From Acutalibacteraceae bacterium (GTDB taxonomy: Bacteria > Bacillota > Clostridia > Oscillospirales > Acutalibacteraceae), in contig JAZNEE010000122.1 in NCBI GenBank assembly GCA_045588405.1, positions 1-31,218 of the forward strand: 31,218 nt of DNA. The letters run 5' to 3'. Under the pieces are notes generated by a model, which saw nothing but the letters and a program-made list of their open reading frames with translations, made no database searches and was not told the DNA's origin. Shown in pieces: positions 454-12,118 of the stretch. Position 1 is the stretch's first letter, and each line of letters starts with the position of its first letter. A program made the translations under genes and the position numbers.

Positions 454-2352
454 TTATTTCACAATAAGCTCGCTTATGAGGTCACAGAAGCCAACAGCAT
501 CGGCAATACCGAGTCCTGCGATAAGACGCGCCTCGTCACCTAAAACCTTTATAAGCTTTTCTGCCTTTTCTTTATCGTTTTCAAAAGCATTTTCAAGCTC
601 TTTAAAAATCTTATGGTCGGGATTTAATTCAAGCACCTTTTCAGCTTTGGGTTTATGCTCGTCACCGGGGATAGCGGCAAAATATTTTTCCATTTCCAAA
701 GAAATCTGACCCTTGGCGGAAATGAACACGGGGTGGCTCTTTAATTTGTCCGAAATCACACACTCGGCAATATCGTCACTTAGCGTTTCTTTAACAAAAT
801 CGCAAAGCTCTTTATATTTTTCGCGTCTTTCCTCGGTTTGCTTCTTTTCTTCCTCAGTTTTAAGCCCTGCATCGTCATCAGCAACCGACTTGAACTCTTT
901 TTCCTCAAAACTTACAAGCGCTTTTACAACAAACTCGTCAACGTCCTCGGTGAGGTAAAGCATTTCAAAGCCTTTGTCTCTGCAAAGTTCAGTTTGAGGG
1001 AGGGACGCGATAGCCTCGGCCGAGTCGCCACAAGCATAGTAAATAAATTGCTGACCCTCTTTCATACGGGCAACATAGTCTTTAAGCGTGGTTAAGGCGC
1101 CTGTTTCGGATGAATGGAACACAAGCAATTCCTTAACGGCATCCTTGTGTATACCAAAATCGCTGACGACACCGTATTTTACTTGAACACCGAAGTTGCG
1201 CCAGAAGTTTGCATATTTCTGGGGGTCATTATTAAGAAGCTTTAAAAGCTCGGCTTTAATCTTTTTCTCGATATTGGCGGCGATGGTTTTTAGCTGACGG
1301 TCGTGCTGCAAAATTTCACGCGAAATGTTGAGTGACAAATCGGGACTATCGACAACACCCTTAACAAAACGAAAATGGTCGGGCAACAAGTCCTCGCATT
1401 TATCCATAATAAGCACGCCATTAGAATAAAGTTGCAAGCCTTTTTCAAAATCCTTGGTGAAGTAGCCGTAAGGCACGCTTGACGGAATGAAAAGCATTGC
1501 TTTATAAGAAACAAGTCCTTCGGCAGAAACACGGATGGTGCAAGCAGGGTTTGAAAAATCCATAAACTTCTCTTTATAATACTCGTTGCACTCTTCATCG
1601 GTAACCTCCGACTTCGAGCGTTGCCAAATGGGAACCATGCTGTTTAAGGTTTCACGCTTTGTAACCTTTTCGTATTTAGGTTCTTCACCCTCGTTTGCAA
1701 CATTTTCGGTGCGTTCCATATCCATACATATAGGATAACGGATATAGTCGGAATATTGTCTTATAAGACTGCTTACTTTGAACTGCTCTAAATACTCGCT
1801 ATATTTTTCATCAGGAGTATCTTCTTTTACGTGCATTATGATATCGGTGCCAAAGAAGTCTTTTTCACATTCCTCAATGGTGTAACCGTCACAGCCCTCA
1901 CTCACCCATTTAAAGCCGAAATCGGAATTATACTTTTTGGTGATAACGGTAACCTTGTCGGCAACCATAAATGCCGAATAGAAGCCAACACCGAACTGAC
2001 CGATAATATCGGCGGAATTTTCCTCGTCATCCTTTATCTGCTCTTTAAACTTTAAAGAACCGCTTTTGGCAATGGTGCCGAGATTTTCTTCCAATTCCTC
2101 GGCGGTCATACCAATTCCGTTATCCGAAACGGTTATGGTGCGAGCCTCTTTATCAAGCGTTACAGTTATGGCAAACTCGGGGTTTTTAGCCCTCAAAGCC
2201 TCATCGGTAAGCGACAGATAATGCAGTTTATCAACGGCATCACTGGCATTGGAAATAATCTCGCGAAGGAAAATATCCTTGTTGGTGTAGATTGAATTGA
2301 TCATAAGATCAAGCAATCTTTTAGACTCTGCTTTAAAATTTTTCTTTCTCAT
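454..2352 (-). CDS. htpG: Molecular chaperone HtpG (Hsp90)
   Basis: Motifs FLREIISNASDA, DNGIGMT, IGQFGVGFYSAF, LNISREILQ; 632 aa. Confidence 0.97.
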   Translation of the reverse strand: MRKKNFKAESKRLLDLMINSIYTNKDIFLREIISNASDAVDKLHYLSLTDEALRAKNPEFAITVTLDKEARTITVSDNGIGMTAEELEENLGTIAKSGSLKFKEQIKDDEENSADIIGQFGVGFYSAFMVADKVTVITKKYNSDFGFKWVSEGCDGYTIEECEKDFFGTDIIMHVKEDTPDEKYSEYLEQFKVSSLIRQYSDYIRYPICMDMERTENVANEGEEPKYEKVTKRETLNSMVPIWQRSKSEVTDEECNEYYKEKFMDFSNPACTIRVSAEGLVSYKAMLFIPSSVPYGYFTKDFEKGLQLYSNGVLIMDKCEDLLPDHFRFVKGVVDSPDLSLNISREILQHDRQLKTIAANIEKKIKAELLKLLNNDPQKYANFWRNFGVQVKYGVVSDFGIHKDAVKELLVFHSSETGALTTLKDYVARMKEGQQFIYYACGDSAEAIASLPQTELCRDKGFEMLYLTEDVDEFVVKALVSFEEKEFKSVADDDAGLKTEEEKKQTEERREKYKELCDFVKETLSDDIAECVISDKLKSHPVFISAKGQISLEMEKYFAAIPGDEHKPKAEKVLELNPDHKIFKELENAFENDKEKAEKLIKVLGDEARLIAGLGIADAVGFCDLISELIVK

Positions 2353-2373
2353 AAATAAAGACCTCTTTAAAAA

Positions 2374-4509
2374 CTATTGCACTCCGCGGTAGTAAAGTCC
2401 ACGAGTATAATCGCAATCGGGACTCTTATTAAAAATTGCGGAATTTATAACCTCTTGGCATCTTTCTTTGCTTTCATCGGTGAAATAAAGCACCTTAAAA
2501 CCTGCTCCGAAATCAAGGCTTCTGTCAAAATTCCAAAGCACCTTGGAATTGAACATTTCAGAAAACTCACCGCGACAAAAAACAGGAAATTCCATCTGCT
2601 TACGGTCGGTCAAGGTTGTTTTGCCATCGCAATTTTTACAACCGCCACCGTTTTTACCGGGGCAATTTTTAAATATCATAAGCGGCAATCTGCCATAAAC
2701 AATTGTGCCGACGGGGATCTCGGATTTTAGTTCTCTTATAGCATCGGCAGTAAGCTCAAAGGAGGCTATTGCACCTTTTAACCCTAAATCTGCCAAAACG
2801 TTTAACGAATGCGAATTGAACACATTAAGTCCTAATCCGCCAACAGCAAACAAATCAACCTCATTGGTCAACGTAATTCCTGCAATATTGCCAACCACAA
2901 CTGCCTTGACACCGTTTTGCTTGGCTTTTACAAGATCGGCTCTGTATTTTTCCGTAAAGTGCATAACACCTCGCGGTAAATCGGCTAAAACTGAGATGTT
3001 TTTCGGCAAATTAACCTTGCTAAAATCGGTTTCAACCGGCAAAACCACCGCACCGACACCGGTTAAATCATCGGGAATTTGCTCACAAGTCTTAAAAAAT
3101 GCCACAAGCTGCGGCTTTGTGCCGATTGATCGTTTATCTTTGACAGAAGGCACCGAAACCTCATTACTTTGTCGCAAAACAATGCTTCTTTTTTTATCTA
3201 AAAGTTCAACACACTCACGTCGAAGGGCATTTAAACTACCGGCACCCAAAAACAAACCGCCGTCAATTTCTGCTTTAAAATCTTGAAGATAATAACAGGT
3301 ACCGCCCAATTTGGAAAGCTTTTCCTTAACGTCCTGCTCGGTTATCGCTTTTGTTTGCGCTTGTTGCGGAACGTCACCCAAAGCCTTAACCTCATTGCCG
3401 TCAAAATCTCTCAACATAAGTGTTGTGGGCTTGTTTTCTTTAACTTTAAGTTCCATTTCAACAGGAACGCTCTGTCTGTCACGACGATAAAGCTCGTGGG
3501 CTGTATTTATAAGCTCGGCGGTCATTTTCTCGTCAGAGTTTGTGCGGATACCAAACATATCATCATACTTTGCGGTGAAATATCCGTCGGTATGACCACT
3601 TCTGGAAAAAATGCCCGAAAGCAAATCTTTTGTGCTTTGCTCGGCTTCTTGTCCGTCAACTGTGGCACGGGCAACCGAAACCGCAGCGGCAACATACTCG
3701 GGGCGCTTCATTCTGCCCTCAATTTTAAGCGAGCAAACACCCATCTCACGAAGCTCTTCAATATGGGATAAAAAGCTCATATCTTTAAGGCTTAAATCGT
3801 GCCCTGTGCCGTTTTCAACCGAAAATGCAAGTCGGCAAGGTTGCGCACAAAGTCCGCGGTTGCCACTTCTGCCACCGAGCATTGCACTTAAATAACATTG
3901 ACCCGAAAGGCACATACAAAGTGCGCCGTGAACAAAGACTTCAACCTCAATGCCAAGTTCTTGAGCCTTTTTGCAAAATGAGGTCAACGCCTTTTTATCC
4001 ATTTCTCTTGCGGGAACAACGCGAACGAAGCCTAATTTCTTTAAAACGGGCAATGCATCATGTGAATGCACCGACATTTGTGTTGAAGCGTGAAGCGGTA
4101 GACTTGGGATTTGCTCTTTTAGAAGCCTTGCAAGTCCCAAATCCTGCACGATAACAGCGTCTATTCCGCTATCGAACGCAAATTTTGCCTCCAATAAAGC
4201 TTGCTCCATCTCTCGGTCGGAAACAAGAGTATTAAGCGTTAAATAGGTTTTAACTCCCCTAACCTTGCAAAACGAAATGGCTTCTGCCATTTCTTCGCGT
4301 GTGAAGTTCTTTGCGTTTCGTCTTGCATTGAAAGATGGCGCACCAAAATAAACGGCATCGGCACCGCTTCTGACAGCGGCAATCACCGTATCAAAGCCAC
4401 CTGCCGGAGCCAAAACCTCTAAATTTTTACCCCTTTTAAAAACGGAAAGGGCGCCGGAAGGCTCGGCCGAACCGACCGACATCCCGACGCTTTTTGTTTC
4501 AAAACTCAT
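2374..4509 (-). CDS. U32-family 'peptidase' with long C-terminal extension (RlhA-like RNA hydroxylation family)
   Basis: LEVLAPAG, GADAVYFG, HASTQM, EVEVFVHGALCMCLSGQC, RGLCAQPCR, SLKIEGRMK; Cys cluster present. ATGA overlap with zapA. Confidence 0.85.
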   Translation of the reverse strand: MSFETKSVGMSVGSAEPSGALSVFKRGKNLEVLAPAGGFDTVIAAVRSGADAVYFGAPSFNARRNAKNFTREEMAEAISFCKVRGVKTYLTLNTLVSDREMEQALLEAKFAFDSGIDAVIVQDLGLARLLKEQIPSLPLHASTQMSVHSHDALPVLKKLGFVRVVPAREMDKKALTSFCKKAQELGIEVEVFVHGALCMCLSGQCYLSAMLGGRSGNRGLCAQPCRLAFSVENGTGHDLSLKDMSFLSHIEELREMGVCSLKIEGRMKRPEYVAAAVSVARATVDGQEAEQSTKDLLSGIFSRSGHTDGYFTAKYDDMFGIRTNSDEKMTAELINTAHELYRRDRQSVPVEMELKVKENKPTTLMLRDFDGNEVKALGDVPQQAQTKAITEQDVKEKLSKLGGTCYYLQDFKAEIDGGLFLGAGSLNALRRECVELLDKKRSIVLRQSNEVSVPSVKDKRSIGTKPQLVAFFKTCEQIPDDLTGVGAVVLPVETDFSKVNLPKNISVLADLPRGVMHFTEKYRADLVKAKQNGVKAVVVGNIAGITLTNEVDLFAVGGLGLNVFNSHSLNVLADLGLKGAIASFELTADAIRELKSEIPVGTIVYGRLPLMIFKNCPGKNGGGCKNCDGKTTLTDRKQMEFPVFCRGEFSEMFNSKVLWNFDRSLDFGAGFKVLYFTDESKERCQEVINSAIFNKSPDCDYTRGLYYRGVQ

Positions 4510-5070: not shown

Positions 5071-5102
5071 AACAAACCCGCCGAGTTTGCCTCGGCGGTT
5101 TT
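5071..5102 (-). terminator. Intrinsic terminator after rhaD
   Basis: 8-bp stem ccgccgag (5078-5085) / ctcggcgg (5091-5098) with a 5-nt loop, followed by GTTTGTTT on the minus strand. Confidence 0.75.
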
Positions 5103-5125: not shown

Positions 5126-5941
5126 TTACAGATTAAGGAAATCTTTTCTGTAAGGAAGACCAAATGCCTCGATGACGTCGCGAAGCTCGGTATCGAGAAT
5201 GGTGTTAACGTGGGGCATATGAGCGGTGAGCATGTAAAGCTGTGCTGCCTTTTCAACAGTTTCGATAAGACCAAAGGTTTCGTCCATATCTTTACCTGCA
5301 CCGTAGATGCCGTGGAGACCCCAAACAACCAAGCGGTACTCTTCCATCTTCTTGGCGGTTGCAACACCGATTTCGTTATTGCCGCAAACCATCCAGGGCA
5401 AAACGCCGATACCGTCGGGGAAAACAACGATACACTCGGTGCACATCTCCCAAATGGTGTGGGTGAACTTCTTATCGTCAAGCTCGTGAACGTGAGTCAT
5501 AGCAAGAGTGTATGTAGGATGGGTGTGCATAACAACGCGGTTCATAGGATCCTTTTTAAGACGTGCCATGTGGCTCATAAGGTGTGCAGGGAACTCGCTT
5601 GTGAACTTGCCACCATCTTTATAGCCCCAAAGAAGCTCTGCAGAGGTGCCGTCCTTTGCGATACGAACAATGCCGAGGTTGGTCTCGGGATCAATTTCAA
5701 CGTTCTTGAAATATTTACCGGTACCGGTAACGATGAAAATTTTGCCGATAAGCTCGGTTGCATCAAAGCCTAAAGGAATGGTACGGATAACATTATTGAG
5801 GTCAAGGTACTCTGCAACCTGCTCGGTTTCGAGCATGTAGCTGATGTTACCGCCGTTACGTTCATCCCAACCAAGACGGTACATATTAGCGGTTGCTCTC
5901 ATCATGTCTTCAACAAAAGGTGCCTTAAAAATGTCTTTCAT
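5126..5941 (-). CDS. rhaD: Rhamnulose-1-phosphate aldolase (class II aldolase)
   Basis: GWDERNGGNIS, VTGTGKYF, PTSE-like FTSEFPAH, metal-binding HTH (MHTHPT), WGLHGI; 271 aa. Confidence 0.88.
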   Translation of the reverse strand: MKDIFKAPFVEDMMRATANMYRLGWDERNGGNISYMLETEQVAEYLDLNNVIRTIPLGFDATELIGKIFIVTGTGKYFKNVEIDPETNLGIVRIAKDGTSAELLWGYKDGGKFTSEFPAHLMSHMARLKKDPMNRVVMHTHPTYTLAMTHVHELDDKKFTHTIWEMCTECIVVFPDGIGVLPWMVCGNNEIGVATAKKMEEYRLVVWGLHGIYGAGKDMDETFGLIETVEKAAQLYMLTAHMPHVNTILDTELRDVIEAFGLPYRKDFLNL

Positions 5942-5966: not shown

Positions 5967-7379
5967 TTATAAACTGTTAAGTTTTTCTTCAAGAAGCTTG
6001 CGGATAACGGCAGGATCGCCAACACCCTTAAGTTCCTTCATAATAAGACCGAACAAGCCTTGCATTGCCTTTGTTTTGCCACCCTTATAGTCATCAACCG
6101 CCTTCTGATTTTCGGCAATTACGCGACAAACGGTGTCAAGCACAACGCTTTCGTCAACCTTGGCGTTAAGTCCGTTCACGTCGCAATATTTGTCAACGTC
6201 AACATCAGACTCAAACACAGCAGCAAGAACCTTTTTACCTGCAGCACGGGTGATTTCAGCCTTTTCAACAAGCTCGATGATACGAGCAAGCTTTTTAGGC
6301 TCGATAGAAAGGGTTTCAAGTCCCAAATAGTTCATTCGGCTCATACATTCGGTCAAAATCCAACCGGCAACCGCTTTGGGGTTGCAACCAAATGCAACAA
6401 CCTTATCAAAAAACTCACAAAGGGTTAAATCGGAAGCGAGAACTGCGGCATCCTTTTCGTTGATGCCCATGTCAACATACTTCTGACCCTTTTCTTCTGC
6501 CGTTGCGGGCATACTTGCTCTGATTTTCTCAAGCCAAGCATCGTCAATAACGATGGGCATAAGGTTGGGATCGGGGAAATAACGGTAATCAGCGGCGGTT
6601 TCCTTGTTACGCATAGGGAAGGTGCGACGCTTGATTTCGTCCCAACGTCTTGTTTCCTGAACAAGCATTTCGGTGCGACGTTCGATTGCATCAACGTGAC
6701 GAACCTTTTCAAACTCGATAGCGTCCTTGATTTCGGCAAACGAGCTCATATTCTTGATTTCGGAACGAACGCCAAACTCGGTTGAACCTTCGGGACGAAC
6801 TGAAATGTTAACGTCGCAACGCATTGCACCCTCTTCGCACTCGGAAATACCTGCGAACTGCAACGAAGATTTAAGCTTTTTAAGATAAGCAATAACCTCA
6901 TCCGAACTACGGAAGTCGGGCTTGGTAACTATCTCAATAAGCGGAACGCTGGTACGGTTATAGTCAACGAGCGAAGTGTTGGTTGCATCGTCGTGAACAA
7001 GCTTACCTGCGTCTTCTTCAACGTGAATCTGTTTAATGCCGATCTGTCTGCCACCAATCTCAACCGAACCCTCAACGCAAATAGGATGGAACCACTGGGT
7101 TATCTGATAAGCGGAAGGAAGGTCGGGATAGTAATAGCTCTTTTTATCAAAGGTGGTATATTGATTGATTTTGCAGTTGAGCATAAAGCCTGCCTTTACT
7201 GCCAGTTCAATAGCGTGCTTGTTGGTGACGGGCAACATACCGGGCATACCGCTGCAAGCAGGGCAAACGCAATCGTTAGGCTCATCGGCAGCAGCGTGAC
7301 CACCGCAAGAACAGAACAATTTGGAATCGGTGGCAAGTTCAACGTGGGTCTCAAGACCAATAACTAATTCGTATTTCAT
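5967..7379 (-). CDS. gatB: Asp/Glu-tRNA amidotransferase subunit B
   Basis: IGLETHVEL, YYPDLPSAYQITQ, HVEEDAGKL, DYNRTSVPLIEIV, RCDVNIS, EIKN, YRYFPDP and a YqeY-like tail. The metal-binding motifs appear intact. Confidence 0.95.
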   Translation of the reverse strand: MKYELVIGLETHVELATDSKLFCSCGGHAAADEPNDCVCPACSGMPGMLPVTNKHAIELAVKAGFMLNCKINQYTTFDKKSYYYPDLPSAYQITQWFHPICVEGSVEIGGRQIGIKQIHVEEDAGKLVHDDATNTSLVDYNRTSVPLIEIVTKPDFRSSDEVIAYLKKLKSSLQFAGISECEEGAMRCDVNISVRPEGSTEFGVRSEIKNMSSFAEIKDAIEFEKVRHVDAIERRTEMLVQETRRWDEIKRRTFPMRNKETAADYRYFPDPNLMPIVIDDAWLEKIRASMPATAEEKGQKYVDMGINEKDAAVLASDLTLCEFFDKVVAFGCNPKAVAGWILTECMSRMNYLGLETLSIEPKKLARIIELVEKAEITRAAGKKVLAAVFESDVDVDKYCDVNGLNAKVDESVVLDTVCRVIAENQKAVDDYKGGKTKAMQGLFGLIMKELKGVGDPAVIRKLLEEKLNSL

Positions 7380-7394
7380 TGTAAAACTTCCTCC

Positions 7395-8549
7395 TTATTC
7401 CATAATTTCGGCAATTTTAAGAAGCTTGCCGTCGGCAAAATGATCACCAATAAGCTGAACACCCTTTGTCACAACTGCAGGCATACCTGTTATGGATGCA
7501 AGGCAGGTGAACTTGCTTTCATCGAACACCTTCAAGAAAGCATCGGTTTTGTAGCTTAAATCAAAACTACTGCTAGCAGGGGTTAAAACAGCATCGAATT
7601 TTGCGAAAATATCTTTAAGTGTTTCAACGGCAACACGACGGATTTTGAGTGCTTTATCATAGCAATCGTCATATCTGCCTTTTGACAAAACGTCGGAGCC
7701 ATAGATAATGGTGGCTTTGGTTAAGAAACCAAATGCTTCGGTACGGCTGCCAACATACAAATCATCAATGTTTTTGTAGCTTGCAGTGCGATGACCGTAT
7801 TTTACACCGTCAAAACGGGACAAATTGTTGGTGGTTTCAGCGCTCATCAAAATTGTCCAAGCGGTTTGAATCTCGTTTACAGCGTCAAGCGAAATTTCTT
7901 CAACTAATGCGCCTTTTTCTTCCATTGCTTTTTTATAAGCATCAATTTTTGCCTTAACGTCGTCGTTAGCGGCTGCATAAAGTTCTTTTACAAGGGCGAT
8001 TTTCATACCCTTTACATCGGCATTTACTTCATAATCATATTTTTCGGTGGGTAAAGAAGTGCCGTCTTTAGAGTCGTGACCTGCAACGGCTGTCAAAACC
8101 TCTCTTGCTTTGGCGGCGCACTTTGCGGTAACGCCAACCTGCTCACCCGAGCAAGCGCAAGCAATAATGCCGTAACGCGAAACGGTGCCATAGGTGGGTT
8201 TTACAAAGGTAGCGCCCGTAACAGCGGCGGCACGACGGGGTGCACCGTTTAAATCAACGTTTAATGCAACCTCAACGTCACCTGCCATAACGGCTTTTGC
8301 AGCGGCAGCGGTTTCGCCCTTAAAATAAGAGGTTTCGCCAATTACGTCGAGTCCAAACTCGCCAACGTTTGTTTTACCTTTGACGGTAAAGCCTGATTTT
8401 TCGGCTTTGTTTACAACCTCGGCCGAGAAAAGAGGCTTGAAGTTTTCAAGCATTTTAGAGCCTGCAGTAGCAGCGGTGTCCTTGACGAGCAAGGTGTCGT
8501 CAACAGCCAAGTTGCCGTTTTTGTTTATTTCGTTTATATAAAAGCTCAT
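7395..8549 (-). CDS. gatA: GatA-like amidase-fold subunit, N-terminally shortened, catalytic triad not recognisable
   Basis: SKMLENF, GKTN, KPTYGTVSRYG, NLSRFDGVKYG, ALKIRR align with GatA, and the gene lies between aspS-gatC and gatB. About 384 aa. Start placed at ATG 8549 behind GAGGTG. Confidence 0.88.
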   Translation of the reverse strand: MSFYINEINKNGNLAVDDTLLVKDTAATAGSKMLENFKPLFSAEVVNKAEKSGFTVKGKTNVGEFGLDVIGETSYFKGETAAAAKAVMAGDVEVALNVDLNGAPRRAAAVTGATFVKPTYGTVSRYGIIACACSGEQVGVTAKCAAKAREVLTAVAGHDSKDGTSLPTEKYDYEVNADVKGMKIALVKELYAAANDDVKAKIDAYKKAMEEKGALVEEISLDAVNEIQTAWTILMSAETTNNLSRFDGVKYGHRTASYKNIDDLYVGSRTEAFGFLTKATIIYGSDVLSKGRYDDCYDKALKIRRVAVETLKDIFAKFDAVLTPASSSFDLSYKTDAFLKVFDESKFTCLASITGMPAVVTKGVQLIGDHFADGKLLKIAEIME

Positions 8550-8559
8550 CATTAACACC

Positions 8560-10665
8560 TCACTTTACAAGTCTCGGAACCTGCCAGCTGTCTTCGGTGC
8601 TTTGAGGCGCACCTTTAAGCAGGTCTTCACGGGCAAAGGGTTGCTCGCGTTTATCGTCACGAAGAATATTGGTCATAGGCAAAACGTGAACCATAACGTC
8701 TTTACCCTCGGTATCAACCTTGCCCATTTCATCTTCTTTGTTTTTCATTGCTTTGAAGATTTCCTTCATAGCGGTTTCTTCTTCGGCAGTGAATTTAAGT
8801 TCGTTTACCTGCTGAAGTCCTTTAAGTTTATCCTTGCCACCCGAGGTTACACCTGCTGCAGCCTTAACGGTTTCGGCAAAAGCGTCTGCATCGCCACCCT
8901 CAACACCGATGGTAGCGCCTTGCTTACCTCTAACCTGAACGTTGGCTTCAAAGAGCTGAAGCTCGGTAACTTCACTCGGAGCGCCAAGCAACTGGTCCTG
9001 TGCAGTTCCGTCAAGCGGGAATGCAATAACGTCACGAATGGTTTCGGTATCGGCAAGAAGCATAACAATTCGGTCAACACCGGGTGCCATACCTGCATGA
9101 GGCGGTGCACCAAACTGGAACGCATTATAAAGTGCGCTGAATCTACGTTCAACCTCATCCTCAGAATAGCCTGCTATTTCAAAAGCTTTTCTCATGATTT
9201 CGGGGCTGTGGTTTCTAACAGCACCGGATGCAAGCTCAATACCGTTACATACAAGGTCGTACTGATATGCAAGGATTGTGGTTGGGTCTTTTGTGAGCAA
9301 AGCTTCAAGACCACCCTGAGGCATTGAGAACGGGTTGTGAGTGAATATAATGCTATCGGTAGCTTCGTCGAGCTCATACATCGGGAAGTCAACAACAAAG
9401 CAGAACTCGAACGAATCTTTATTAATAAGACCAAGCTCGTTACCAAGCCAGGTGCGGATAACACCTGCATTTTTATCGGCGGTGTTGGAAGAAGTGTCGC
9501 AAATGAAGAAGATGGTCTCGCCTTCTTTAAGTCCTGTGAGAAGCGCGATTTCCTTCTTCTGTTCCTCGGTCATAACCTTGGTGATGGGGTCATCTTTAAA
9601 CTTGTAACCGTCGGCTTCAAGCAAGGTGATATGAGCAAGACCTGCCATTTTAGCCTGCTTGGTTGCAAACTCCAAAGACTTATCGAAGAACCATCTTTCA
9701 GCCTTACAAGGAGCCACGATACCGCGAACAAACTTGTTTTTAAAGGGCTTGAACTCAACCCTTGTGAACATCTCGGTCAAATCGCAGATGATAAGCGGGT
9801 TGCGAAGGTCGGGCTTATCTGAACCGTATTTTGCCATACTTTCAGCATAAGGAATGCGTCTGAACGGCGAAGCGGTAACAGGTTTATCAGAGAAGGTGCG
9901 GAAAACGTTGCTTACAACGTCCTCACAAATCTGCAAAACCTCGTCTTGGGTTGAAAAAGCCATTTCAAAGTCGAGCTGATAGAATTCACCGGGTGAACGG
10001 TCAGCACGAGCGTCCTCATCACGGAAGCAGGGTGCAATCTGGTAATATTTATCAAAGCCCGAAACCATAAGCAACTGTTTGAACTGCTGAGGTGCCTGGG
10101 GAAGCGCATAGAACTTGCCGGGATGCTTACGGCTGGGAACGAGGAAGTCACGAGCACCTTCGGGTGAAGATGCGGTGAGGATAGGAGTTTGAATATCAAG
10201 GAATCCTCTTTCCTCCATGAGCTTTCTCATGTGTCCGATAACCTTCGAACGAAGAATAATGTTATTATGAAGTGCAGGGTTTCTAAGATCCAAGAAACGG
10301 TGCTTTAAACGAATGTTTTCGTTGGTGTCGGTTGCGCCGATTTCAAAAGGCAAGTCACGAGTACAGGTGCCCAAAATCTCAGCTTTATCGGCAACAAGCT
10401 CAACAAGACCCGTTTCAATTCTTGCGTTTACGGTGTCGGGGTCACGCTCGGTGACAACACCCGAAACCGACAAAACGGTCTCCTTACCTACTCCTTTAAG
10501 CAAGTTTTCGTCGTGGAAAACGACCTGGGTCACACCGGTTTCGTCACGAAGATCTACGAAAAGTACGCCGCCGTGGTCACGAATAACGTCTACCCAACCG
10601 GCAAGCTGAACATTAGCTCCGATGTGTTCCTTTCTTATTTCATTGCAACGATGAGTTCTATACAT
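8560..10665 (-). CDS. aspS: Aspartate-tRNA ligase (probably non-discriminating) fused at its C-terminus to a GatC-like domain
   Basis: YRTHRC, RDHGG, RLKHRFLDLR, PEGARDF, ALPQAPQ, QIAPCFRDEDARADR, GAPPHAG. The last ~88 aa resemble GatC (DTEG..VHVLPMTNILRDD..REDLLKGAP..WQVPRLV). Start ATG 10665 with GGAGG RBS. Confidence 0.93.
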   Translation of the reverse strand: MYRTHRCNEIRKEHIGANVQLAGWVDVIRDHGGVLFVDLRDETGVTQVVFHDENLLKGVGKETVLSVSGVVTERDPDTVNARIETGLVELVADKAEILGTCTRDLPFEIGATDTNENIRLKHRFLDLRNPALHNNIILRSKVIGHMRKLMEERGFLDIQTPILTASSPEGARDFLVPSRKHPGKFYALPQAPQQFKQLLMVSGFDKYYQIAPCFRDEDARADRSPGEFYQLDFEMAFSTQDEVLQICEDVVSNVFRTFSDKPVTASPFRRIPYAESMAKYGSDKPDLRNPLIICDLTEMFTRVEFKPFKNKFVRGIVAPCKAERWFFDKSLEFATKQAKMAGLAHITLLEADGYKFKDDPITKVMTEEQKKEIALLTGLKEGETIFFICDTSSNTADKNAGVIRTWLGNELGLINKDSFEFCFVVDFPMYELDEATDSIIFTHNPFSMPQGGLEALLTKDPTTILAYQYDLVCNGIELASGAVRNHSPEIMRKAFEIAGYSEDEVERRFSALYNAFQFGAPPHAGMAPGVDRIVMLLADTETIRDVIAFPLDGTAQDQLLGAPSEVTELQLFEANVQVRGKQGATIGVEGGDADAFAETVKAAAGVTSGGKDKLKGLQQVNELKFTAEEETAMKEIFKAMKNKEDEMGKVDTEGKDVMVHVLPMTNILRDDKREQPFAREDLLKGAPQSTEDSWQVPRLVK

Positions 10666-10704
10666 TTTATTACCTCCAATTGTGTTGCATAAATTACTGT
10701 GAAT

Positions 10705-10920
10705 AAACAAAAACGTCCCGAGAATCTTTACGATTCCCGGGACGAGTATAAACCCGCGGTGCCACCCGTTTTGACGCCCAAAACAAGACGTCCTCTTTTA
10801 ATATTCAATTCCAAGTGGTCAAACGAAGTGTTGCCGAACTTACTACTCACTTTAAGCACGCTTTCAGCCGGTGACATGCTCTCTCTTTCAAGTTTTCCTG
10901 GAAAGTCGGGTCTTCATCGG
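10705..10920 (-). promoter_or_regulatory. T-box riboswitch leader of the aspS-gatC/gatA/gatB operon
   Basis: Minus strand shows an AGAGA-like box (AAAGAGAGAG), GCTGAA motif, T-box AACGGGTGGCACCGCGG (about 10770-10754) and terminator CGTCCCGGGAATC-GTAAA-GATTCTCGGGACG-TTTTTGTTT (about 10745-10705). Confidence 0.92.
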
Positions 10921-10924
10921 GTAG

Positions 10925-10953
10925 ATTATATCAAACATTTAAAAATTTGTCAA
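10925..10953 (-). promoter_or_regulatory. Consensus sigma-A promoter of the T-box leader
   Basis: TTGACA (10953-10948), 17 nt, TATAAT (10930-10925). Confidence 0.88.
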
Positions 10954-10960
10954 TACATTT

Positions 10961-12097
10961 TTAAATGAGCTCTTTTGCCAAAGCCTTTATCTGCTCTTTT
11001 GACTGCTCGTTTAATGCCGAGCGAACAGTTACGGTTGTTTCGGCAAAAGTGATTTCTTTACTGTTTTCAAAGTGTTTTTTAATGATTTTAGCAGCTTGAG
11101 GTGCCCAGGTTCCGTTTTCAATAATACCTATAAAACGGTTGCGATAGCCTCTTTCGACAAGCTCGTGAACAAACTCGCGCATAAAGGGGAAAATATCGCC
11201 GTTATAGGTGGTGGTTGCAAGCACTATTTTGCCGTAACGGAAGGCATCTTCAACACATTCTGCCATATCTGAGCGTGCCAAATCGTTGACAACAACCTTA
11301 GGACATCCCAAAGCCTTTAACTCACCTTCCAAAACTTCGACAGCAGCCTTTGTGTTGCCATAGACCGAGGTGTAGCAAATAGCAACACCTTCGCTCTCAA
11401 CACCATAGCTCGACCAGGTGTTATAAAGGTCAAGATAATAGCCCAGATTTTCGCTCAAAACAGGTCCGTGAAGCGGATAGATGGTGTTGATTTCCAAAGC
11501 GGCAGCTTTTTTAAGCACGTTTTGAACCTGAACACCGTATTTTCCAACAATGCCGATATAATATCTTCTTGCCTCGCAAGCCCAATCCTCATCGACATCC
11601 AAAGCGCCGAATTTTCCGAAAGCATCGGCAGAAAACAATGCTTTTTCGTTAGAATCATAGGTCATCATAACCTCGGGCCAATGAACCATGGGTGCCAAAA
11701 CGAAGGTAAGCTGGTGACCGCCAAGATCCAAAGTATCTCCCTCTTTTACAACAAGCCTGCGATCGGCATAATCGGTGCCGAAAAATGCACTCATCATATT
11801 GAAAGCCTTATCGGTTGCAACGATGGTTGCCTTAGGGTATTTTAAGGCAAAATTATGCACGTTGGCCGAATGGTCAGGCTCCATATGTTGAACGACAAGG
11901 TAATCGGGGGCTTTGCCCTCTAACGCTTTATCAATATTGGAAAGCCACTCGTCGCCAAACTTTTTATCAACCGAGTCCATAATTGCGATTTTGTCACCAA
12001 TCACCGCATAAGAATTATATGCCATTCCGTTAGGAACGATGTATTGACCTTCGAAAAGGTCGATCTCGTGGTCATTTACACCGACATATTTTATCAT
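10961..12097 (-). CDS. Flavodiiron protein (FprA family; metallo-beta-lactamase-like plus flavodoxin domains)
   Basis: HMEPDH, PMVHWPE, DAFG, PLHG, and flavodoxin-like YTSVYGNT. Start at ATG 12097 (GTG 12106 is an alternative). Confidence 0.9.
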   Translation of the reverse strand: MIKYVGVNDHEIDLFEGQYIVPNGMAYNSYAVIGDKIAIMDSVDKKFGDEWLSNIDKALEGKAPDYLVVQHMEPDHSANVHNFALKYPKATIVATDKAFNMMSAFFGTDYADRRLVVKEGDTLDLGGHQLTFVLAPMVHWPEVMMTYDSNEKALFSADAFGKFGALDVDEDWACEARRYYIGIVGKYGVQVQNVLKKAAALEINTIYPLHGPVLSENLGYYLDLYNTWSSYGVESEGVAICYTSVYGNTKAAVEVLEGELKALGCPKVVVNDLARSDMAECVEDAFRYGKIVLATTTYNGDIFPFMREFVHELVERGYRNRFIGIIENGTWAPQAAKIIKKHFENSKEITFAETTVTVRSALNEQSKEQIKALAKELI

Positions 12098-12118
12098 AGA
12101 AAACACTTCCTTTTATAT

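Follow-up and report, generated by a model that had tools for sequence, protein, structure and literature searches.

Aspartyl-tRNA synthetases fused to GatC and encoded with a glutaminase-dead GatA paralogue in uncultured gut Clostridia: a probable tethered, ammonia-fed Asn-transamidosome

Indirect synthesis of Asn-tRNA(Asn), as described in textbooks, depends on a glutamine-hydrolysing GatA and on a transamidosome that is non-covalent and tRNA-dependent. The known transamidosomes are non-covalent, being either held together by the tRNA or dynamic, and contain a GatA with an active glutaminase (PMC2330236, PMC9499178); the triad nucleophile of Staphylococcus aureus GatA is Ser178, and GatC acts as a folding and assembly clamp (PMC2330236). 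The glutaminase step of amidotransferases can be bypassed with 20 mM NH4Cl, and destabilization of the GatA site in yeast GatFAB leads to higher ammonia-dependent activity (PMC4027206). Thermus and Deinococcus possess a discriminating aspartyl-tRNA synthetase (AspRS1) in addition to a non-discriminating AspRS2 that is used with GatCAB (PMC4206432). Analysis of the 31,218-nt window considered here (positions 1 to 31,218 of contig JAZNEE010000122.1 from the Acutalibacteraceae bacterium assembly GCA_045588405.1, a 1.2-Mb metagenome-assembled genome (MAG) that is 71% complete, hereafter G000) reveals a family that departs from the textbook scheme on both counts: the synthetase and the amidotransferase clamp are parts of one polypeptide, and the glutaminase is dead. 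The module consists of an AspRS fused to GatC (AspRS'::GatC'), a GatA paralogue (GatA') and a GatB (GatB'). Because the amidase triad of GatA' is lost, the leader of the operon is an asparagine-type T-box, the gene content of eight relatives shows no other route to Asn-tRNA(Asn), and the glutaminase step can be bypassed with NH4Cl in published systems, we consider it probable that these three proteins constitute a tethered, ammonia-fed Asn-transamidosome. The genes and domains of the module are located in the window as follows.

8560..10665, reverse strand: AspRS'::GatC' fusion open reading frame (ORF), 701 aa.
8929..10665, reverse strand: AspRS' core, residues 1-579, comprising an OB anticodon-binding domain with RDHGG, a class IIb catalytic core and a GAD insertion (Pfam and NCBIfam).
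8839..8928, reverse strand: linker, approximately residues 580-609 (about 30 aa), rich in Ser, Gly, Ala and Lys and poorly conserved.
8563..8838, reverse strand: GatC' domain, approximately residues 610-701 (PF02686, TIGR00135), followed by the TGA stop at 8560-8562.
7395..8552, reverse strand: gatA', a glutaminase-dead, N-terminally shortened GatA paralogue of 384-385 aa (Amidase, PF01425).
5967..7379, reverse strand: gatB', a full-length GatB of 470 aa with cradle and YqeY tail domains (NF004012).

Positions 8560-10710 of the reverse strand form a single uninterrupted frame of 716 codons, in which the ATG at 10665, with GGAGG 8 nt upstream, is the likely start and gives a protein of 701 aa, and the database cluster to which it belongs (P0002) has the same length; residue ranges up to 716 in the profile searches are numbered over the 716-codon frame. 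As a first-pass annotation of this DNA had claimed, AspRS and GatC share one ORF, and the strings that it quoted (EANVQVR, a Gly/Ala-rich stretch, LKFTAEEE, VHVLPMTNILRDD and QVPRLVK) all occur in the translation as written. Pfam places tRNA_anti-codon at residues 34-113 and tRNA-synt_2 at residues 130-566 (370 bits), with PF01336 and PF00152 both exceeding their cut-offs; the GAD domain at residues 325-411 scores 22.9 bits, marginally below the 23.4 cut-off, and is precomputed as PF02938 in most relatives. The NCBIfam aspS equivalog NF001750 scores 737.5 bits (cut-off 443) and TIGR00459 scores 589.6 (cut-off 373.85); by these profile matches, the AspRS' half is a complete bacterial-type AspRS. 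A Pfam scan of the C-terminus, which the first-pass annotation had proposed as a check, identifies GatC (PF02686) at residues 640-709 with 33.4 bits (cut-off 23; profile positions 1-64 of 66), and TIGR00135 gatC scores 48.4 bits for the isolated tail, residues 600-716 (cut-off 47.1), and 43.9 within the whole protein.

A search with residues 590-716 only retrieves 256 proteins, almost all of them 701-702 aa long and possessing PF02686 together with PF00152. Since the same fused architecture recurs in >250 clusters (701-702 aa) drawn from independent NCBI, ENA, JGI and Logan assemblies, it is not an assembly artefact; where these relatives are named (MAGs of Clostridia, Oscillospiraceae, Ruminococcaceae and Acutalibacteraceae), the NCBI label is 'aspartate--tRNA ligase'. 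Across 46 family members, mean column identity is 0.93 in the AspRS' core, 0.80 in GatC' and 0.63 in the linker; identity in the last 12 alignment columns of GatC' is at least 0.98, and the domain aligns end to end with the free-standing GatC' of 93-100 aa found in related operons. The linker window spans 33-34 aa in members of the main clade, compared with 21-25 aa in other clades, and Ser, Gly, Ala and Lys account for 62% of its residues. An AlphaFold2 prediction of the whole fusion from a 46-row alignment has a mean predicted local distance difference test score (pLDDT) of 52.7 and a predicted TM-score of 0.41, with the AspRS core itself poor and the linker pLDDT uninterpretable; a complex prediction for the GatC' tail with GatA' and GatB' scores 0.91 and its control with GatB' replaced scores 0.87, hence it gives no verdict.

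The open frame of gatA' extends over 7395-8558 (387 aa), with an ATG at 8552 or 8549, so that 7-10 nt separate it from the TGA of the fusion (8560-8562). Because gatA' starts almost directly after this stop, there is no separate gatC at the locus; the first-pass annotation, which found no gatC before gatA, is right for the window. The genome does have a free gatC, on a contig that the first-pass annotation could not see (C197). GatA' matches Amidase (PF01425) with 165.8 bits and TIGR00132 gatA with 253.8 bits, short of the 481 cut-off, and profile positions 1-61 are missing. In an alignment with the canonical GatA encoded in the same genome, AVKDN is changed to AVDDT and GSDTGGSIR to NVDLNGAPR, and the GGSSSGS loop is replaced and shortened; the altered positions are the Lys, the cis-Ser and the nucleophile Ser of the amidase triad. 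All 16 operon copies have lost the triad, and the same losses are seen in 15 database relatives: in 16/16 copies the Lys has become Asp or Glu and the GGSSGG loop is gone, and the nucleophile position is Ala in 11 copies, Ser in 4 and Thr in 1. Without the Ser-cisSer-Lys triad, glutamine hydrolysis by the known mechanism is impossible. Other GatA motifs are retained, including KPTYG.VSRYG and NNLSRFDGVKYG, and the closest solved relatives of the GatA' profile are the GatA chains of 3H0L, 2DF4 and 4WJ3, matching from about residue 63-78 on. The best 120 of its 7,876 matches are 384-399 aa long, share 64-100% identity with the query and bear the NCBI name 'hypothetical protein'.

GatB' scores 562.7 bits with NF004012 (cut-off 338), 364.9 with PF02934 and 113.3 with PF02637, and the conserved GatB catalytic motifs are kept throughout 15 operon copies and the canonical copy; GatB' constitutes a clade of its own, with 45% identity to the canonical copy. 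The order aspS'(::gatC')-gatA'-gatB' is found at 16/16 loci, with all three ORFs intact in each, and no further conserved gene was found around the module in these 16 fetched loci. The first-pass annotation proposed that the synthetase is tethered to the amidotransferase: the fusion does head an operon of GatA-like and GatB genes, but its partner lacks the catalytic Lys, the cis-Ser and the nucleophile Ser, so this is no normal GatCAB. A complex that is still glutamine-dependent, either through a non-canonical active site in GatA' or through an unlinked glutaminase that docks on GatB'/GatA' and feeds the tunnel, would be in keeping with the very strong conservation of GatA', GatA motifs included, perhaps beyond the needs of a bare scaffold, and with the Ser (4/16) or Thr (1/16) at the nucleophile position; it is unlikely, given that the Lys and the cis-Ser loop are absent from every copy, that the old nucleophile position has no invariant residue, that the operon neighbourhood offers no other conserved gene, and that the Amidase-family genes of five dependent genomes are GatA' only.

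The expression signals of the operon point to asparagine and lie upstream of the fusion gene.

10925..10953, reverse strand: sigma-70-type promoter, TTGACA-17 nt-TATAAT with a TG extension (12/12 consensus match).
10735..10962, reverse strand: Asn-specific T-box leader (RF00230), with the putative specifier AAC within GGCAACACUUCG and the T-box core GGGUGGCACCGCG.
10714..10744, reverse strand: intrinsic terminator of the T-box attenuator, recognized by sequence as a 13-bp stem followed by a T-run.

The leader matches RF00230 with 48 bits (E 1.3e-9) in a permissive search, short of the gathering score of 93, and at the gathering threshold Rfam reports none in the window; at its 5' end the cmscan match extends over the promoter, and this part of it is probably spurious. 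T-box matches are present upstream of aspS' in 10/10 related operons searched, one of them at 99.1 bits, above the gathering score. Two canonical leaders possess GAAAAAC[A/G], with AAC in the register of UUC in the pheS leader of the same genome; the reduced leaders, that of the window included, have GG[G/C]AAC[A/G]CU in common, with a conserved AAC-purine motif; and in the window leader the CUUC that follows AAC-A can pair with GAAG of the GAUGAAG element. Because of this register, the shared motif and the pairing, inspection identifies the specifier of the window leader as AAC (Asn). The leader of pheS-pheT (locus L011, 9229-9482, reverse strand), a full T-box with 111.7 bits, has UUC (Phe) as its specifier and served as the register control. 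The connection to tRNA(Asn) made by the first-pass annotation is strengthened in part by the AAC T-box and by the motif RDHGG, which is present in 16/16 AspRS' and contrasts with RDLG in six housekeeping AspRSs of the same genomes, as would fit a tRNA(Asn)-charging enzyme.

Gene content indicates how far relatives depend on the module. In the genomes examined, AsnRS is above cut-off only in G193, G230 and G125, and canonical gatCAB is present only in G000, G121, G163, G002 and G125. Eight relatives (G131, G211, G187, G207, G184, G092, G015 and G098) are 94-99% complete and possess GlnRS; in these eight, no AsnRS above cut-off is found, and the GatA' protein as a query finds no GatA of canonical length. 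The Pfam Amidase model matches nothing other than GatA' in G131, G211, G187, G207 and G015, and a real AsnB is present in one of these five. For the eight relatives, no route to Asn-tRNA(Asn) other than the module was found. A role in Gln-tRNA synthesis was rejected on account of GlnRS in 15/16 genomes examined. It is quite improbable that the module performs another chemistry on Asp-tRNA(Asn), such as the use of a different nucleophile through GatB', or merely sequesters or protects the mischarged tRNA without plain amidation: removal of the defining half-reaction with the loss of the ammonia-producing subunit would be consistent with this, as would the separate clade of GatB', but the AAC-specifier T-box links expression to uncharged tRNA(Asn), genomes without detected AsnRS or canonical GatA must still produce Asn-tRNA(Asn), and GatB' retains every conserved GatB motif.

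In a taxonomic survey, also among the checks proposed by the first-pass annotation, GatA' (frames of 377-435 aa with >45% identity) is encoded in about 10 of the 150 genera that were sampled within the family of the window, and in 4/120 genomes from other families of the order; every genome with GatA' carries aspS'-gatC'-gatA'-gatB'. The gatC' gene is fused in G000, G131 (two copies), G187, G211, G193 and one JGI contig, and is a separate ORF of 93-100 aa, 6-63 nt after aspS', in ten others. On a long branch, separate from the housekeeping AspRSs that the same genomes encode (about 40% identity), AspRS' forms a clade with 100/100 support; most module-bearing genomes possess an additional AspRS, about 600 aa long and not linked to the module. 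There are two well-supported clades of fused forms, the linkers of which are unrelated in sequence, and fusion requires two changes of state on the best tree, a single origin being recovered in 8% of bootstrap trees. These trees and gene orders mark the fusion as derived, within a wider module of four genes. G131 (98% complete) contains two whole fused operons, L019 (contig C21) and L020 (contig C2), one per fused clade, with AspRS' copies 94% and 64% identical to that of the window; no canonical GatA or AsnRS was found in this genome. That the GatC tail is an inert read-through relic of a protein that works as AspRS only, with GatA' and GatB' in decay, would agree with the poor conservation of the linker, the complete canonical gatCAB of the window genome and a same-genus genome (G125) that lacks the module, but is scarcely credible for a GatC' this well conserved (mean 0.80; at least 0.98 in the last 12 columns), a length fixed at 701-702 aa in >250 clusters, three ORFs intact at 16/16 loci, intact catalytic motifs in GatB', and several genomes with no other visible route to Asn-tRNA(Asn).

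G000 itself has a second operon, on contig C197 (L011 845-5684), consisting of canonical gatC (70.5 bits), gatA (477 aa, 527 bits) and gatB followed by an archaeal-type AspRS, which matches 'aspartate--tRNA(Asn) ligase' NF003483 with 481.7 bits; the T-box leader of this operon scores 90.4 bits, marginally below the gathering score, and its specifier in the cmscan alignment is GAC (Asp). Bin contamination was rejected as the source of the two operons: the G+C content is 0.437 for the contig of the window (C122) and 0.440 for C197, and in tetranucleotide distance neither contig stands out from the bin. Since this canonical, glutamine-dependent gatCAB is present with its archaeal-type AspRS, the module is probably a second, glutamine-independent route in G000. 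GlnRS is encoded on contig C2 of G000, cut by the contig end; AsnRS, AsnA and a real AsnB were not found in this 71%-complete genome. The class II LysRS gene, split over two contig ends (C52, L012 41-1090; C60, L013 2250-2366), illustrates the fragmentation of the MAG. The same-genus genome G125 has the canonical operon on its contig C41 and is without any bacterial-type AspRS.

The mechanism that we infer, with its binding interactions, channelling, tRNA specificity and ammonia donor, would run as follows. AspRS' would be an AspRS paralogue dedicated to charging tRNA(Asn), from the C-terminus of which a flexible linker of about 30 residues leads to GatC'. From the gene order and the co-conservation with gatA'/gatB' at 16/16 loci, GatC' is expected to wrap around the GatA'-GatB' pair encoded directly downstream, in the manner of free GatC within GatCAB. 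AspRS being dimeric, each dimer would permanently carry two GatC'A'B' units, without assembly around the tRNA. Asp-tRNA(Asn) would be made by AspRS', then phosphorylated by GatB' and finally amidated by GatB' to Asn-tRNA(Asn), while GatA' would provide a scaffold and might also retain a remnant of the tunnel. Free ammonia, abundant in the gut and the rumen, would be the most likely source of the amide nitrogen, and uncharged tRNA(Asn) would induce the operon through the asparagine-specific T-box.

Several observations weigh against this mechanism or the dependence of the cells on it. AsnRS is encoded alongside the module in G193 and G230 and without it in G125, the same-genus genome in which the module was not found; because of AsnRS in these three relatives and the lack of the module in G125, the module is dispensable in some backgrounds. 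Absence of a gene from a MAG is never complete proof. tRNA(Asn), the U1-A72 pair of which is an identity element recognized by bacterial GatB, is not among the 27 tRNAs assembled in the 71%-complete MAG, nor in the fetched loci. The Ser in four GatA' and the Thr in one at the nucleophile position leave a non-canonical hydrolytic site conceivable, and the role assigned to the His of RDHGG is that reportedly seen upon mutagenesis of the P. aeruginosa non-discriminating AspRS. With these points taken into account, a tethered, ammonia-fed Asn-transamidosome is still the best reading of the module. A broader proposal is more tentative and falls a little short of probable: that in a clade of gut and rumen Clostridia all Asn-tRNA(Asn), and in most members all asparagine as well, is made with a hard-wired AspRS-GatC/GatA'/GatB' particle that uses free ammonia, glutamine hydrolysis having been abandoned, and that the fusion arose more than once and keeps mischarged tRNA from escaping.

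A literature search returned nothing relevant on transamidosomes that depend on ammonia, on GatA in a dead or shortened form, or on natural fusions of AspRS with GatC; the sole match to 'aspS-gatC' is an artificial operon. In many uncultured gut Clostridia, the module is seemingly the only source of Asn-tRNA(Asn) despite its dead glutaminase. If the proposed mechanism is true, the family would provide a natural test of how far channelling matters for translational fidelity, and a natural ammonia-dependent amidotransferase that parallels AsnA as opposed to AsnB and the ammonia- as opposed to glutamine-dependent NAD synthetases; GatA' would be a pseudoenzyme with a clear structural role, and the annotation of proteins now called 'aspartate--tRNA ligase' and 'hypothetical protein' could be corrected.

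The surroundings of the module differ between loci. A gene of the class II aldolase/adducin family (window 5126-5941, reverse strand) begins 25 nt past gatB' and is followed by the first strong terminator (5078-5098); in the window genome, it could share a transcript with the operon. The JGI locus L018 has a GDSL lipase in this position. An ODP/metallo-beta-lactamase and flavodoxin-domain protein (flavodiiron-like) adjoins the operon both in the window (10961-12106, reverse strand) and in the JGI relative (L018 12434-13588). Further downstream in the window (454-4509, reverse strand) are HtpG (Hsp90 family, 632 aa) and a U32-family peptidase with DUF3656 (711 aa), both ordinary.

The module may be compared with four kinds of described or annotated system. 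The first-pass annotation supposed that such fusions might already appear in automated annotation, and a model of this kind exists: NCBIfam NF009460 (PRK12820), a bifunctional AspRS/GatC from another lineage, so that annotators have already recognized the architecture. It has the same domain order, with 723 model positions compared with 701 aa here. The window protein scores 433.2 bits with this model (cut-off 1379), over positions 25-619, which cover the AspRS part only, and none of 301 genomes sampled from the phylum of the window reaches the cut-off; because of this, the window fusion belongs to a different fusion family, probably an independent one. A second comparison is with the unfused aspS'-gatC'-gatA'-gatB' operons of related Oscillospirales (for example L024-L032), in which AspRS' is 62-72%, GatA' 44-58% and GatB' 54-69% identical to those of the window; these operons share the dead triad, RDHGG and the T-box leader, and differ in having a separate gatC' and no linker.

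The bacterial Asn-transamidosomes of Thermus thermophilus (3KFU), Pseudomonas aeruginosa (4WJ3) and Helicobacter pylori bring together the same four protein functions for what would be the same task, in which tRNA(Asn) is aspartylated and then amidated without release of the mischarged intermediate. Like the AspRS of P. aeruginosa, AspRS' is of the bacterial type and has a GAD domain, and both GatA' and GatB' have homologues among the solved subunits; unlike the known transamidosomes, the module has AspRS and GatC in one polypeptide and a GatA' without the triad. As in Thermus and Deinococcus, a second AspRS in addition to the housekeeping one would serve tRNA-dependent asparagine synthesis; the dedicated AspRS of those genera is archaeal-type and free-standing, whereas AspRS' of the module is bacterial-type, operon-linked and often fused to GatC.

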